The notes below the pieces were generated by a model, which did no database searches, had not been told where the DNA came from, and saw only the letters and a program-made list of their open reading frames with translations. Shown here one piece after another: positions 878 through 19,527 of a stretch of DNA of 21,715 nucleotides. The first letter of the stretch is position 1. Every line of letters starts with the position of its first letter. This DNA is from Oculatellaceae cyanobacterium bins.114 (GTDB taxonomy: Bacteria > Cyanobacteriota > Cyanobacteriia > Elainellales > Elainellaceae), in assembly GCA_033764315.1 (NCBI GenBank), contig JANRJA010000220.1, positions 1-21,715 of the forward strand, read 5' to 3'. The translations under genes were made by a program, and so were the position numbers.

Positions 878-911
878 GTTATCCTGAAGGGAGTTGCCCA
901 GTGAAGCGTCC

Positions 912-2132
912 ATGACTCAACAACCTGCCCGCATTTGCATCCTTGGTGGAGGCTTTGGAGGTCTTTACACCGCGTTGAAATTGAGCCAGTTTCCGTGGGA
1001 GAAACCTGAAAAGCCTGAGATTGTGTTGGTTGACCAGCGCGATCGATTCCTCTTTTCTCCCTTGCTATATGAGCTAATTACCGATGAATTAGAGACGTGG
1101 GAGATCGCCCCACCCTTCACAGATTTGTTGGCCAATACTGGGGTGCAATTTCACCAAACGGCTGTCGCAGGAATTGATCTGGACACTCAGCACGTGCATT
1201 TGCAGAATGGTTCTGACTTGTCGTTCGATCGCTTGGTGTTGGCGTTGGGAGGCGAAACCCCGCTAAATTTGGCACCGGGTGCGGCTGAGTATGCAATTCC
1301 TTTTCGCACGGTCTCCGATGCTTATCGGTTAAAAGAACAACTCCGACTGCTTGAAGCCTCTGATCGAGAAAAAATTCGGGTGGCGATCGTTGGGGCGGGC
1401 TATAGTGGGGTTGAATTGGCATGCAAGTTGGCAGAACGACTGGGCGATCGCGGTCGGGTTCGCATTGTCGAAATCGCTGATCAAATTTTGAGAACCTCGC
1501 CAGAGTTTAACCGAGATGCGGCGACTAAAGCACTGCAAGAGCGTGGAGTGTGGACAGATCTAGAAACGAAGGTGGTTTCAGTGAGTCCAGAGGCGATCGC
1601 CCTAGAGTATAAGGGCAAGGTAGATGAGATTCCTGTGGATATCGTCTTGTGGACGGTAGGAACTCAGATGCCAGAGGTGGTGCAAAACCTCCCCTTGAAG
1701 CACAATCAACGGGGTCAAGTCGTCGTCACGCCGACGCTGCAAGTCGTAGACGCACCCCATATTTTTGCTTTGGGAGATCTGGCTGAGTGTTATGACGCAG
1801 AAGGTCAGCGTGTTCCGGCCACGGCACAAGTTGCCTTTCAACAAGCCGAGTTTGCCGCCTGGAATATTTGGGCCTCTCTCAGCGTTGACCCCGCTGGGGA
1901 AACTGCTTCGCACCGCCCATTGTTACCCTTCCGCTATCAAGCGTTGGGCGAAATGATGTCGCTTGGCACAGCCGATGCTACCTTCGCTGGATTAGGGGTC
2001 AAGTTAGATGGTCTGCCGGCTCATGTGATGCGGCGACTGGCTTATCTTTATCGCATGCCAACGCTGGAACATCAGCTTAAAGTGGGGCTGAATTGGATGA
2101 TGCGGCCAATTCAAGATTTATTGTTGCCATAG
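912..2132 (+). CDS. ndbB: Type II NAD(P)H dehydrogenase, NdbB/NDC1-type (demethylphylloquinone reductase-like)
   Basis: Two Rossmann motifs (ICILGGGFGGLY; IVGAGYSGVELA), FLFSPLLYEL, WEIAP, ALGDLA, PATAQVAFQQA and RRLAYLYRMPT. ATG at 912 is preferred over TTG at 894. Confidence 0.85.
   Translation: MTQQPARICILGGGFGGLYTALKLSQFPWEKPEKPEIVLVDQRDRFLFSPLLYELITDELETWEIAPPFTDLLANTGVQFHQTAVAGIDLDTQHVHLQNGSDLSFDRLVLALGGETPLNLAPGAAEYAIPFRTVSDAYRLKEQLRLLEASDREKIRVAIVGAGYSGVELACKLAERLGDRGRVRIVEIADQILRTSPEFNRDAATKALQERGVWTDLETKVVSVSPEAIALEYKGKVDEIPVDIVLWTVGTQMPEVVQNLPLKHNQRGQVVVTPTLQVVDAPHIFALGDLAECYDAEGQRVPATAQVAFQQAEFAAWNIWASLSVDPAGETASHRPLLPFRYQALGEMMSLGTADATFAGLGVKLDGLPAHVMRRLAYLYRMPTLEHQLKVGLNWMMRPIQDLLLP
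1885..1911 (+). mobile_element. 27-nt in-frame insertion in a HIP1-like site (copy 1)
   Basis: GCG|TTGACCCCGCTGGGGAAACTGCTTCGC|ACCGC; 20/27 identical to the copy at 19005-19031. Confidence 0.7.
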
Positions 2133-3323: not shown

Positions 3324-5048
3324 TTATACGGGTCGCATTGAAATGCTCAGGCTCACAGCCGCCAGCACTAATCCTCCCACTAAACTCACCCCATAAAACA
3401 CCAGCAATGCTATGCGAGTTGTCCAGCGAACGTTGGGTTCTTGCTGTAGTTGCACAAGTGATTTAACCAGACTGTATTTTTGGTTAAATGGCATTGCCCC
3501 ATAACCTGCTTGTCTAACAGCCGTAAATAGGGTCAACAACAAGTCGGGTAAGGTGCGATTTCTCTCTTGGGCAAACGGCTTAGCATCGTCACTCGATTGG
3601 ATCTGTTGCAGTTGTTTGAGAATACGAGCACTGCGATAACTGTTGGGGATGCTCGATCCCACAATGATGGCTAAAAACAGCAAGAATGGGTCGTTAAACG
3701 TCATGACCAGCAACACAATCAGAAATACGGTGACTCCTTTAAAGATCAACTCTGCCCAGGGATATCGCGAAAAGAGCAAGAGGTTTACGACCCGGCCTCC
3801 ATCGAGTGGAAAGATGGGTAACAGGTTGAGATAGTTGAGAATAATCAAAAAATTAATCGTCAATGCCAGTGAGCTAGATTGGTTGACCGTTTGAGGTAAG
3901 GCGATCGCCATGATACAACCCAACAGCAAACCAGGAAGTGGACCTGCTAACAACACCATCACCTTTTCGCTGAGGGTAGCGTGATCTTTGCGTCCTGCGG
4001 TGGCTGCCCCAAAAAATGGCAAGAAAAAGATAGAGGTATTTTCATAGCCAAAGCTGCGCATCGCTGCAAAGTGTCCCAACTCATGTAGAAAGAGCACTCC
4101 AATCAGGAGCAATAAATCTTGCCAGGGAAATAAATGGGTAAAAGACAGAAAAAACACCACCAAACTCAATGCCAAGATCCACAGCTTGGTACCTCGGCGC
4201 GATCGCCCCTGCTCAAATTTTTGGAGCTGTTGATAGGCGTCTACTTCTGCCTCAACCGGGATAAAGAGCGCATCATTGAGGGTGGGCTTTGCCTGTGTCA
4301 ATCGCTGTTTTAACACGGCCATTCGTTTAGGGTTGCCCCGTCCCATCTTGAGTGTGGTTTGCAGGGCAGGCCATAACCCTAAATGGAGACAAGAAGGCCC
4401 TGATGCTGCCAAGTTATTCTCTGTTCGAGGCGATCGCGTCAGAGTTTTCGACTGAATCAAACTATCAACATAAAGGGTTTCGTGTGCCTGGAGTTTAGCC
4501 ATAAAGGCTGTGTAGGTATCAACCTGAGCAAACTGACTATTACCCAGTTCCTGCAACTTGGTTTTATGGACATGCCACTGCTGCTCTGTAGTCAGCACAT
4601 AGTGATCTAGCACAAGGGTGTGAGGCATTTGACCGACAAGACCATGTGCCAGCGCATTCATTGTCATTAGCAGAAAATTGGGTTTGTCTCCCTGATCAAA
4701 AAAGGTATAAAAGCTAACAGTGACCGGATTTGCTGGATCAGGCAGAGCACTCACTATGAGAGCCGCAAACGATCGACAGGGCACCTGTTGCATCAAGATG
4801 CCCCACCGTCGAGCACCCACAATATCGTCAGTTTGGTAATAAGTACTAAACTCAAAGCCCAAGGTTTCCAATTCCTGTACTGAAGTTTTAAAGACCTGTT
4901 TGATGTAATCAGGCACCTCCTCCTGGTGCTTGAGCACATAGTTAGGATGCTGAAACGGCAAGCCTGAAATTTGTTGGAAAATGATCAGGTATGGGACTGC
5001 AACTAGCAGCAGATAAGCCGCAATGATGTACAGGAAAAGGTAAGACAT
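3324..5048 (-). CDS. Site-2 protease (peptidase M50) with long N-terminal extension
   Basis: HELGH zinc motif in a hydrophobic segment, LLAGP and NLLPIFPLDGGR. Start is placed at ATG 5048 (MSYLFLYII) rather than 5198 because the extra 50 codons overlap A/T runs and a REP-like palindrome. Confidence 0.85.
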   Translation of the reverse strand: MSYLFLYIIAAYLLLVAVPYLIIFQQISGLPFQHPNYVLKHQEEVPDYIKQVFKTSVQELETLGFEFSTYYQTDDIVGARRWGILMQQVPCRSFAALIVSALPDPANPVTVSFYTFFDQGDKPNFLLMTMNALAHGLVGQMPHTLVLDHYVLTTEQQWHVHKTKLQELGNSQFAQVDTYTAFMAKLQAHETLYVDSLIQSKTLTRSPRTENNLAASGPSCLHLGLWPALQTTLKMGRGNPKRMAVLKQRLTQAKPTLNDALFIPVEAEVDAYQQLQKFEQGRSRRGTKLWILALSLVVFFLSFTHLFPWQDLLLLIGVLFLHELGHFAAMRSFGYENTSIFFLPFFGAATAGRKDHATLSEKVMVLLAGPLPGLLLGCIMAIALPQTVNQSSSLALTINFLIILNYLNLLPIFPLDGGRVVNLLLFSRYPWAELIFKGVTVFLIVLLVMTFNDPFLLFLAIIVGSSIPNSYRSARILKQLQQIQSSDDAKPFAQERNRTLPDLLLTLFTAVRQAGYGAMPFNQKYSLVKSLVQLQQEPNVRWTTRIALLVFYGVSLVGGLVLAAVSLSISMRPV

Positions 5049-5075
5049 GGTCGAAACCGTTGAGAATAGTGTGGA

Positions 5076-5091
5076 GCGAATGGCTATTCGC
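5076..5091. repeat. Short REP-like palindrome GCGAATGGCTATTCGC
   Basis: Near-perfect palindrome resembling the cyanobacterial GGGCGAATGGCCATTCGCCC repeat as I recall it. Confidence 0.45.
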
Positions 5092-5275
5092 CAATGAAAG
5101 GGATTTTTTTGGAAAAAAGATTGCCTGAATTGGCTTTTGGCTGGGAAAAAGAAACTTGAAAGGCGATCGCCCCACCCAAGAGAGTACTCCGCAATCATAA
5201 AGCCCTAGAACTAATCTAAGGGTAACGGACAGAAATGCTTTCTCATGCGTAAGCTTAAAGGGGGGTACTTAGGCG

Positions 5276-5302
5276 ATCGCCCTCAAAGAAAAGCCGCTTT
5301 GC
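5276..5302 (+). mobile_element. Possible decayed third copy of the 27-nt HIP1-targeted element
   Basis: GCG|ATCGCCCTCAAAGAAAAGCCGCTTTGC|ATCAC; same length and flanks, 14/27 identical to each coding copy, differences mostly transitions. Confidence 0.4.
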
Positions 5303-5325
5303 ATCACGTTTAGGTAGGTTGAGAG

Positions 5326-18885: not shown

Positions 18886-19527
18886 TTAACGTCTTGCTTT
18901 TGCTCGTTTGGGTTGTGTAGCTCTCGACTCTACGGCAAATTCTGTGATATCCCGCAATTCTACTTCACTCAGACTGTATTGTTCACATACCAAGCTAAGA
19001 CGATACGAAGCAGTTCCCCCATTCGGGTAATCACCTAAAAACTCGATAGGATTGATCGAATGAGTTAAATCACCTTGAAAATAAACGACTGTATTGACTT
19101 GAGGCTTAATTTGTCCTACTTGTTGTTTGTGGTTGCGTAACACCAACTCGCCTCCCTGCATCATAGAGGGCACTTGAACATACAACACACTGACAACCAA
19201 CGGTGGATCAATCGTCTTGCAATACGATCGCAATGATCGATCAATATGTGGATCAACCCGAGATCCCTGCTTAAGCAGGAGCGGATTGAGATAAAAGGCA
19301 TTACACGTTGGCTGTAAGACTTGATCTAAATAGGATTTAAAGAAGGGAAATTGTCGCTCAACTTCGGTTATGTGCGATCGCTGAAATACAACCGAAAACC
19401 CCTTCGTTCCTACAAAATCACGATTCAGGTTATTAACCGCAAAATAAGGACATGCTAAAATCTCCCCTCGCAGGTCATTGAGGTAAGCGATCGAGAAGGC
19501 GTTAGAAGTCTGACGATAGTAATTCAT
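18886..19527 (-). CDS. 2OG-Fe(II) oxygenase family protein
   Basis: HxD (PHID), GGEL, distal His (FQGDLTHS) and RxS (RLSLVCEQY). Confidence 0.85.
   Translation of the reverse strand: MNYYRQTSNAFSIAYLNDLRGEILACPYFAVNNLNRDFVGTKGFSVVFQRSHITEVERQFPFFKSYLDQVLQPTCNAFYLNPLLLKQGSRVDPHIDRSLRSYCKTIDPPLVVSVLYVQVPSMMQGGELVLRNHKQQVGQIKPQVNTVVYFQGDLTHSINPIEFLGDYPNGGTASYRLSLVCEQYSLSEVELRDITEFAVESRATQPKRAKARR
19005..19031 (-). mobile_element. 27-nt in-frame insertion in a HIP1-like site (copy 2)
   Basis: Minus strand GTG|ATTACCCGAATGGGGGAACTGCTTCGT|ATCGT; 20/27 identical to the copy in ndbB. Confidence 0.7.

Follow-up and report, generated by a model that had tools for sequence, protein, structure and literature searches.

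A 27-base repeat family at HIP1 half-sites in ndbB and elsewhere in the genome of a Leptolyngbyaceae-like cyanobacterium

HIP1, the cyanobacterial palindrome GCGATCGC, is hyper-abundant in cyanobacteria, and the passages of the literature cited here give no agreed function for it (PMC5861425, PMC13756078). The closest described system is SDR5, a small dispersed repeat (SDR) of 21 nucleotides (nt) (PMC13756078) that is placed between nucleotides 3 and 4 of HIP1 (PMC4390886). Its function is called unknown in passages of the citing literature (PMC13756078, PMC4390886, PMC5861425), one of which reports SDR-like repeats to be absent outside Nostocaceae (PMC5861425). Here, we analyzed a stretch of 21,715 nucleotides, called the window in the following (positions 1 to 21,715 of contig JANRJA010000220.1, assembly GCA_033764315.1, Oculatellaceae cyanobacterium bins.114), in which ndbB, the gene of a type-2 NAD(P)H dehydrogenase (NDH-2), carries 27 additional bases in frame within a HIP1-like site. 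To our knowledge, SDR5 has been the sole element known to target HIP1. The SDRs reportedly comprise eight highly repeated families of 21-27 nt, described by Elhai, Kato, Cousins, Lindblad and Costa in 2008 (Genome Res 18:1484), who are said to have proposed, rather than shown, RNA intermediates and to have noted a common secondary structure for SDR4-6. The host of the window belongs to a Leptolyngbyaceae-like family and not to the Nostocales. We regard it as quite probable that the ndbB insert represents a mini insertion element of the small-dispersed-repeat kind that is non-coding and non-autonomous and would be copied by template on HIP1 half-sites.

The genome that contains the window (G000; 6.64 Mb in 251 contigs, 90.7% complete, 47.6% G+C) has 10,682 exact copies of GCGATCGC, i.e. 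1.6 per kb. The initial annotation had described the segment in ndbB and a sister copy in an unrelated gene of the window, which encodes a protein of the 2OG-Fe(II) oxygenase superfamily. Both are present with the letters quoted, at 1882-1916 and, on the minus strand, at 19005-19031, and a count on the letters gives 20 identical positions of 27 between the two 27-mers, a likeness far above chance. The annotation expected further copies with HIP1 half-site flanks genome-wide, and these exist in large number: an iterated position-weight matrix applied at ≥16 bits found 216 non-overlapping copies on many contigs and none in the reversed-genome control. Aligned copies give the 35-base consensus GCGAT-TACCCC-NNNN-GGGGAACTGCTTCGCAY-CGC, for which 4, 10, 29, 70 and 124 matches were found in G000 at ≤0, 2, 4, 6 and 8 substitutions, respectively, compared to zero throughout in the reversed genome. 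Exact matches to the 14-base core GGRRAACTGCTTCG number 15, and with ≤1 mismatch there are 49, as against 11 in the backwards control. Beyond the 35-base unit the flanks are random, apart from the usual G 5' and C 3' of HIP1. The element has no coding capacity, there being no open reading frame (ORF) in its 27 bases, and Rfam matches nothing near it, the lone match at E 1.8 being expected by chance. Most G000 copies are old: the number of mismatches, scored over 28 positions, has its mode at 6-9 and its median at 6-7, while 15 copies have ≤2 mismatches.

The evidence that these copies were inserted comes from empty orthologous sites. For NdbB, 29 other genomes each contributed their best match (64-87% identity) to an alignment, and the clean nine-codon gap that the annotation had predicted was found in every case: exactly nine codons are absent in 29/29 orthologs. 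In six of them, the empty site is HIP1, reading AGC GAT CGC (L011, L014, L023, L030, L034 and, with AGT, L015), and in the same-genus genome G001 it reads ACA GAT CGT. The claim of a sister insert in the 2OG oxygenase was borne out likewise, since nine codons are absent in 28 of 29 orthologs, four of which (G001, G002, G009 and G019) have the empty site GGC GAT CGC (GGCGATCGC). The 29th ortholog, from G007 of another genus, has independently gained a variant element at the same bond. This G007 copy (L158) carries the tail CTGCGAAGCAAC in place of CTGCTTCGCAC, i.e. GCTTCGC is swapped for its reverse complement GCGAAGC; the CTGCGAAGCAAC-tail subfamily is also found on contig C32 of G000 (minus strand, reverse-complement offset 29476) and occupies independent sites in two genomes. 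A third case is an alr0857-family gene (NCBIfam NF045647) on contig C117, in which the element is present in G000 and G006 and absent in 18 of 21 aligned relatives. Two of these relatives show the empty site GGG CGA TCG CTC, i.e. GGGCGATCGCTC, and the ortholog of G011 has an unlike 24-base insert at the identical bond.

The reciprocal test, in which 40 stretches of G001 with 42 copies were compared with G000, gave 20 copies aligned across the site, 21 with flank matches only and one without match. Among the 20 informative copies, 15 are empty in G000 and five are filled in both genomes. Eleven of the 15 empty sites are clean gaps of exactly 27 bases, three are messy alignments, and the 11 clean sites comprise six exact GCGATCGC, two HIP1 with one mismatch, one HIP1 with two mismatches and two other sequences. 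The ndbB and 2OG oxygenase copies are missing from G001. Some insertions are thus common to G000 and its sister species, while the majority is not. The decayed copies that are shared, together with the sites that are empty in one of two relatives, indicate that insertion is a long-running process, which was still active after the split of G000 and G001. Collectively, the 27-base unit has been added at one HIP1 bond, in both orientations, hundreds of times.

The window itself contains five copies, three beyond the pair of the initial annotation (Table 1).

Table 1. Copies of the 27-base family in the window, their parts and two of the host genes
Feature	Position	Strand	Basis
Host gene, type-2 NAD(P)H dehydrogenase (NDH-2, 'ndbB'), 412-codon ORF	894..2132	+	ORF list, translation, Pfam
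35-base unit in ndbB, GCGTTGACCCCGCTGGGGAAACTGCTTCGCACCGC	1882..1916	+	matrix score 42 bits
27 gained bases GACCCC...TTCGCAC in ndbB	1887..1913	+	family-wide boundary GCGAT^...^CGC
Hairpin CCCC-GCT-GGGG, 4 bp (family form CCCC-N4-GGGG)	1889..1899	+	sequence
Old decayed copy within ORF 3324-5198 (-), orientation opposite to the gene	3555..3589	+	27 bits
Old decayed copy within the 624-aa ORF 3324-5198 (-), orientation as the gene	4403..4437	-	20.8 bits
Older 'CG'-type (HIP1-restored) copy GCGATCGCCCTCAAAGAAAAGCCGCTTTGCATCAC, intergenic, no long ORF across	5273..5307	+	matrix 34.6 bits
Host of the sister copy, 2OG-Fe(II) oxygenase superfamily protein, 213 aa	18886..19527	-	Pfam PF13640
Sister copy GTGATTACCCGAATGGGGGAACTGCTTCGTATCGT	19000..19034	-	matrix score 38 bits
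27 gained bases of the sister copy, family-wide boundary	19003-19029	-	sequence

The ndbB ORF probably starts at the ATG at position 912. It matches Pfam Pyr_redox_2 (E 1.3e-49), and the closest solved structures are those of NDH-2 from Caldalkalibacillus (5kmq/4nwz). The unit in ndbB consists of the left HIP1 half GCGTT, which is GCGAT with one change, the 27-base insert and the right half CGC, and it places the extra residues in the context ..SL-S VDPAGETAS H-RPLL... of the protein. The HMMER alignment of NdbB to solved NDH-2 has a gap at the insert. In the AlphaFold model (mean pLDDT, the predicted local distance difference test, 85) the insert follows the helix 311-329, and residues 331-340 have a mean pLDDT of 56 between neighbouring blocks of 92 and 89; hence the insert is modelled as a low-confidence loop after the helix. 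The assignment of the second host is less firm, as PF13640 is matched at E 9.2e-06, right at the cut-off. Translated in one phase, the 27-mers of ndbB and the 2OG oxygenase gene give SVDPAGETASHR and GDYPNGGTASYR, respectively. Regarding the two decayed copies inside one gene, the ortholog in G001 keeps RLPRRGN at the copy that is oriented as the gene and the ortholog in G011 shows a 9-residue gap there; for the copy of opposite orientation, the ortholog alignment, with a 6-residue gap in G011, is merely suggestive.

The common orientation and phase of the two window inserts, which the initial annotation had pointed out, can be evaluated against the whole family. A copy was called genic by a rule of our own, namely that the longest open frame has ≥100 codons and a codon-usage score of ≥15 bits. 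Accordingly, 150 of the 216 G000 copies are in ORFs and 66 outside; of the genic copies, 79 are oriented as the gene and 71 against it. In a sample of 3000 HIP1 sites, 2571 were genic and 429 non-genic; the lower genic share of the copies suggests some loss of genic insertions. The 79 copies of same orientation are distributed over the frames f0, f1 and f2 as 25, 11 and 43, the 71 of opposite orientation as 54, 2 and 15, and the sums for all 150 copies (79, 13 and 58) resemble the frames of the 2571 genic HIP1 sites (1274, 440 and 857). The consensus is open in five of six reading frames, and f1 in opposite orientation, with only two copies, is the one combination in which it contains a TAA. 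Hence, the same phase of the window pair is real but not special, because orientations are nearly balanced and frames follow HIP1; the combination of same orientation and f2 is the commonest outcome for that HIP1 frame. A selected functional motif, i.e. a peptide, regulatory or RNA signal that arose repeatedly and is not mobile DNA, would explain why both copies noted at first are in frame and in one phase. We give this explanation practically no weight, because the family uses five frames and both orientations, has almost a third of its copies outside ORFs and finds no Rfam counterpart, while resident copies decay freely and the orthologs are fine without the insert.

In the 27-base unit, two lead bases are followed by a CCCC/GGGG hairpin of 4 bp, whose 4-base loop is free, and then by the 13-base tail AACTGCTTCGCAY. 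As the initial annotation stated, the unit lacks terminal inverted repeats: its ends, TACCCC and TTCGCAY, do not match each other in inverted orientation. Young copies do not differ in the stem, whereas the loop is variable even between copies that are perfect elsewhere; AAGA, CAAG, AGAG, GAAG, AAAG and ACAG occur in G000, and GAAG is the commonest loop in other genomes (21/53). In non-coding DNA, units are also arranged in head-to-tail arrays, with three units on contig C239 and two units at two places of C218, each placed at GCAT^CGC of the preceding unit without spacers. These arrays were recognised by eye and are absent from the output of Tandem Repeats Finder. In three loci of G001 (L184, L189 and L196), copies with the same loop lie behind four 84-base tandem repeats, at their end, and are themselves followed by approximately 150 shared bases, so that the mini-element is embedded there in a larger repeated unit; two 84-base units without the element exist in G000 (C170:9753-9929).

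Constant arms around four variable central bases could also be expected if the 27 bases were the excision footprint of a larger HIP1-targeting transposon, with the arms as its termini and the variable middle as repair junction. One site may be cited in its favour: where G001 has the whole element (L193 on G001:C1), G000 reads GCGAT-TAC-CGC (C151:~3828-5038), i.e. HIP1 extended by bases 1-3 of the element, which could be an internal deletion of 24 bases, an excision scar or an alignment artefact. Yet a longer element with these ends was not found in G000, an assembly of 251 contigs and 90.7% completeness from which repeats may be missing; for paired left and right motifs, a distance of 4 was seen 16 times and every other distance just once. 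Moreover, arms of 6 and 17 bases that are intact in hundreds of copies, and tandem arrays as well, are unlike footprints. We therefore consider the transposon footprint very improbable.

The exact insertion bond needs some consideration, because in copies ending with ...CGCAT-CGC the boundary can rotate by two bases. Ten of the 15 youngest G000 copies end with ...CGCAC-CGC, that is with C at consensus position 31, and the insert of G007 does so as well at a site where the empty alleles read GATCGC. Position 31 is thus donor-derived, which places the bond at GCGAT^CGC; this equals GCG^ATCGC on the other strand because HIP1 is palindromic. The boundary GCG|...|ACCGC given in the initial annotation is one possible rotation, but the bond valid for the whole family is GCGAT^...^CGC with position 31 copied. 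Its statement that target duplication is lacking holds, as the flanking AT pair of the copies is donor-derived and not duplicated from the target. Furthermore, in a subfamily that includes the ndbB copy, the A of position 3 is replaced by T (GCGTT...). Counted over 93 distinct sites from other genomes, position 31 is not T in 15 of 18 sites with T at position 3 and in 25 of 64 sites with A (Fisher p = 0.001). If this linkage is real, both junction dinucleotides come from the donor, and a tract of at least 29 bases replaces the central AT of the target. In that case, it fits template copying on the GCG/CGC halves better than ligation of fixed ends or a filled-in staggered cut. As a separate observation, consensus positions 5-6 in G000 show four left-junction types (TA 57, CG 50, GA 32 and TC 29) with few intermediates. 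The 50 copies of the 'CG' subfamily have a complete GCGATCGC at the left junction beside the hairpin. The four left-junction types represent separate lineages, or else they arose when a HIP1-creating process acted on the junction.

In the reading we prefer, new copies would result from template-directed copying of a resident copy with the HIP1 half-sites as anchors, whereby the central AT of the target would give way to a donor tract of at least 29 bases. The proteins for this copying would be supplied in trans, and stem and tail would be kept by selection for being copied, from which the loop would be exempt. Copies in genes would survive as 9-residue insertions in surface loops, because 27 is a multiple of three and five of six frames are open. 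The anchoring of template copying on HIP1 halves is, in our view, moderately supported by the junctions described above, and the 'transposase-less' spread that the initial annotation had proposed appears plausible.

The most serious competitor is a single-stranded hairpin that is moved by an enzyme acting in trans, either of the HUH/Y1 type known from IS200/IS605, of the type of transposases associated with repetitive extragenic palindromic (REP) sequences (RAYT), or a HIP1-specific nuclease combined with ligation. Stem and tail would be what this enzyme recognises, and insertion would take place 3' of GCGAT with no duplication of the target. Several features agree with this: neither terminal inverted repeats nor a target duplication exist, a small hairpin and tail are conserved next to a free loop, 31 positions are identical across genera, and the bond lies precisely beside a fixed pentanucleotide. 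But position 3, which is outside the 27-base unit that follows GCGAT, appears to be co-inherited with position 31, unlike what fixed ends would give. The copies are also chiefly genic, unlike REP elements, and inverted doublets as in REPINs (REP doublets forming hairpins) were not seen, pair distances besides 4 being singletons. Hence, we regard movement by such an enzyme as rather unlikely.

Several observations weigh against the preferred reading or call for caution. Firstly, compensatory stem changes within G000 were not seen, C>T and G>A changes being independent, from which it follows that copies, once resident, do not keep up the structure. In energetic terms, too, the hairpin is ordinary (z -0.5 to -1.7 against shuffles); the initial annotation was right that CCCC-GCT-GGGG can pair, but the ndbB copy folds weakly with -5.3 kcal/mol (z -0.5), and a perfect copy reaches -6.2 kcal/mol (z -1.7). 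Secondly, the linkage of positions 3 and 31 is based on 18 sites, of which 3 to 4 are register-shifted, in related genomes that are not independent of each other, and it is not significant within G000 (4/15 versus 39/118, p = 1). Thirdly, G000 has no HIP1-like sequence at two of the 11 empty sites that are clean 27-base gaps. Moreover, plain microhomology should spread many HIP1-flanked segments, but only two hairpin-bearing families were seen in G000. No enzyme, RNA or master copy was identified, although no search was aimed at the Y1 transposase PF01797. Finally, the coding and non-coding calls come from our own rule of ORF plus codon score and not from a gene finder.

The distribution of the family was analyzed at several levels. 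In a pattern scan with ≤3 mismatches that covered 40 relatives, 47 matches in G000 itself compare to 45 in G001, 110 in G005 and 28 in G020; eleven of the remaining relatives have 1-4 matches and 26 have none, with controls that are nil save for one match in G025. Across an even phylum sample of 401 genomes, matches with ≤2 mismatches were restricted to one family (f15, 3/3 genomes) and G000 of family f1, while neither the other sampled f1 genome nor the 25 large genomes of family f19 had any at this threshold; single matches with 3 mismatches elsewhere in the sample correspond to the control level. Within f15, the genome G327 has seven pattern matches. An exact 20-base core, searched in one genome per species of 185,579 species, was found in 53 stretches, all of them cyanobacterial and none from Nostoc. 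The carriers are Leptolyngbyaceae/Leptolyngbyales, Myxacorys, Stenomitos, Kovacikia, Pantanalinema, Elainella and Phormidesmis, and furthermore 'Phormidium tenue' FACHB-886, FACHB-502, FACHB-471, JS3 and metagenome-assembled genomes called Allocoleopsis and Crinalium. Among 72,556 plasmids searched with BLAST, genuine matches occur only in Kovacikia minuta CCNUW1 and Leptolyngbya sp. NIES-3755; another 40 rows from enterobacterial plasmids with E = 4 were rejected as chance matches. The core is identical between genera whose NdbB proteins are only ~70% identical, which implies either a constraint from the copying process or horizontal spread.

The copy in the alr0857-family gene has a particular surrounding. 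The block C117:1-2730 (L069) consists of a run of tRNA genes (six in G000, seven in G006), the element-bearing gene and a gene for a small HNH endonuclease, and it shares 82-94% DNA identity with G006, G010, G002, G001 and G011, whereby the similarity stops sharply at ~C117:2730 in all of them. Since this identity is far above that of housekeeping genes, the block probably represents a tRNA-array island that moves horizontally. Rfam found no family besides tRNAs in it. A copy of the element is also present 150-370 bases past the end of the block in G010, G002, G011 and G001.

The unlike insert of G011 in the same gene represents a second, 24-base family that splits HIP1. In G011 (L072, C97) it reads GCG|TTCGGCTTTGCCGTCTCGAAGAGA|ATCGC, and approximately four copies of the form GCG|ACCCCTWGCGGGTATCTCGGAGMG|ATCGC are found in G000 (C4:~255, C113, C158:~8692 and C232:~8880). 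Like the 27-base family it uses the bond GCG^ATCGC and is inserted in frame, and its short lead is likewise followed by a hairpin of 4 bp and a tail of 11-12 bases, but it differs in sequence, length and the low copy number in G000. Its stems differ by genome yet pair (CGGC/GCCG versus CCC/GGG; n = 2), while the tail TCTCGRAGAG is kept. Other short repeats abundant in G000 are the palindrome GAGACGCGATTAATCGCGTCTC, whose core 14-mers occur ~160 times, tandem heptamers GAGTTTT, and GGCGGTTGAAACCGCC, TATAGCAGTCCTAAATCATTTGTGA and AGCAACCGGGGATCT.

Three unrelated cassettes at one bond, if SDR5 is included, suggest that specificity resides in the target and not in the element, and that HIP1 is regularly opened by something at GCG^AT^CGC. 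A broader idea, which we put forward only tentatively and hold to be less likely than its opposite, is that the unrelated 21-, 24- and 27-base hairpin cassettes use HIP1 halves as homology arms in a transposase-free copying that resembles template switching or gene conversion and starts from a conserved nick or stall at the HIP1 centre. The question of HIP1 function is about 30 years old; if the idea were true, it would provide a direct experimental handle on it and define a novel way in which the smallest mobile DNA known so far is spread. HIP1 as the target would mean that replacing GCGATCGC by GCGTTCGC abolishes capture, and the free loop offers a natural place for a tag to follow a donor copy. 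Apart from the mechanism, 9-residue loops written into roughly 150 proteins of one genome represent cheap variation in protein length, and the copies are usable as clean presence/absence markers for strain phylogeny.

How does this family relate to known systems? REP/REPIN elements with their RAYT transposases are likewise short, hairpin-forming, highly repeated and non-coding, and they are moved in trans, as is proposed here for the 27-base family (Bertels and Rainey, 2011, PMC3116915). REPs are extragenic and form inverted doublets, while the 27-base family has 150 of 216 copies in ORFs, occurs singly or in direct tandem and has one palindrome as target. Miniature inverted-repeat transposable elements (MITEs) resemble the family in being non-autonomous, dispersed and polymorphic among relatives, but the family has no terminal inverted repeats, no true target duplication and no parent found in G000. 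MITEs are also several-fold larger than 27 bases. CRISPR repeats were excluded, as the copies are single and dispersed and the arrays are head-to-tail without spacers. A full-text search found no published description of the core letters, to which a plant primer paper was the lone and irrelevant match, or of HIP1 together with Leptolyngbya and a mobile element.

The closest likeness is with SDR5. To obtain a sequence for comparison, the Nostoc punctiforme plasmid pNPUN01 (NC_010631) was scanned for GCG-N21-ATCGC, which gave 14 matches, five of them sharing TAGGCGYAGCCCGCCGYAGGC; we take GCG-TAGGCGYAGCCCGCCGYAGGC-ATCGC of this plasmid to be SDR5, an assumption made without comparison to the published consensus. 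Both families are non-coding, tens of bases long and placed at the same HIP1 bond, and both have a length that is a multiple of three and a 4-bp G+C hairpin. They differ in length (27 versus 21 bases), in the freely varying loop of the 27-base family and in the hosts, which belong to another order, Leptolyngbyaceae-like plus one neighbouring family. Moreover, ATTACCCC-N4-GGGGAACTGCTTCGC shows no similarity to the presumed SDR5 sequence TAGGCGYAGCCCGCCGYAGGC from our own extraction; hence the distinction from SDR5 made in the initial annotation is upheld as far as length and this extracted sequence are concerned. Regarding the SDR class as a whole, reportedly defined by a size of 21-27 nt, the family is short, repeated and dispersed and shows presence/absence between relatives. 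The shared structure of the class has a more ambiguous counterpart here, with no covariation in the 27-base copies of G000 and stems that differ but pair in the 24-base family (n = 2). Altogether, the 27-base repeats represent a new family of a known, thinly studied kind, as judged with regard to SDR1-8 from passages of the citing literature and from the SDR5 consensus that we derived ourselves.

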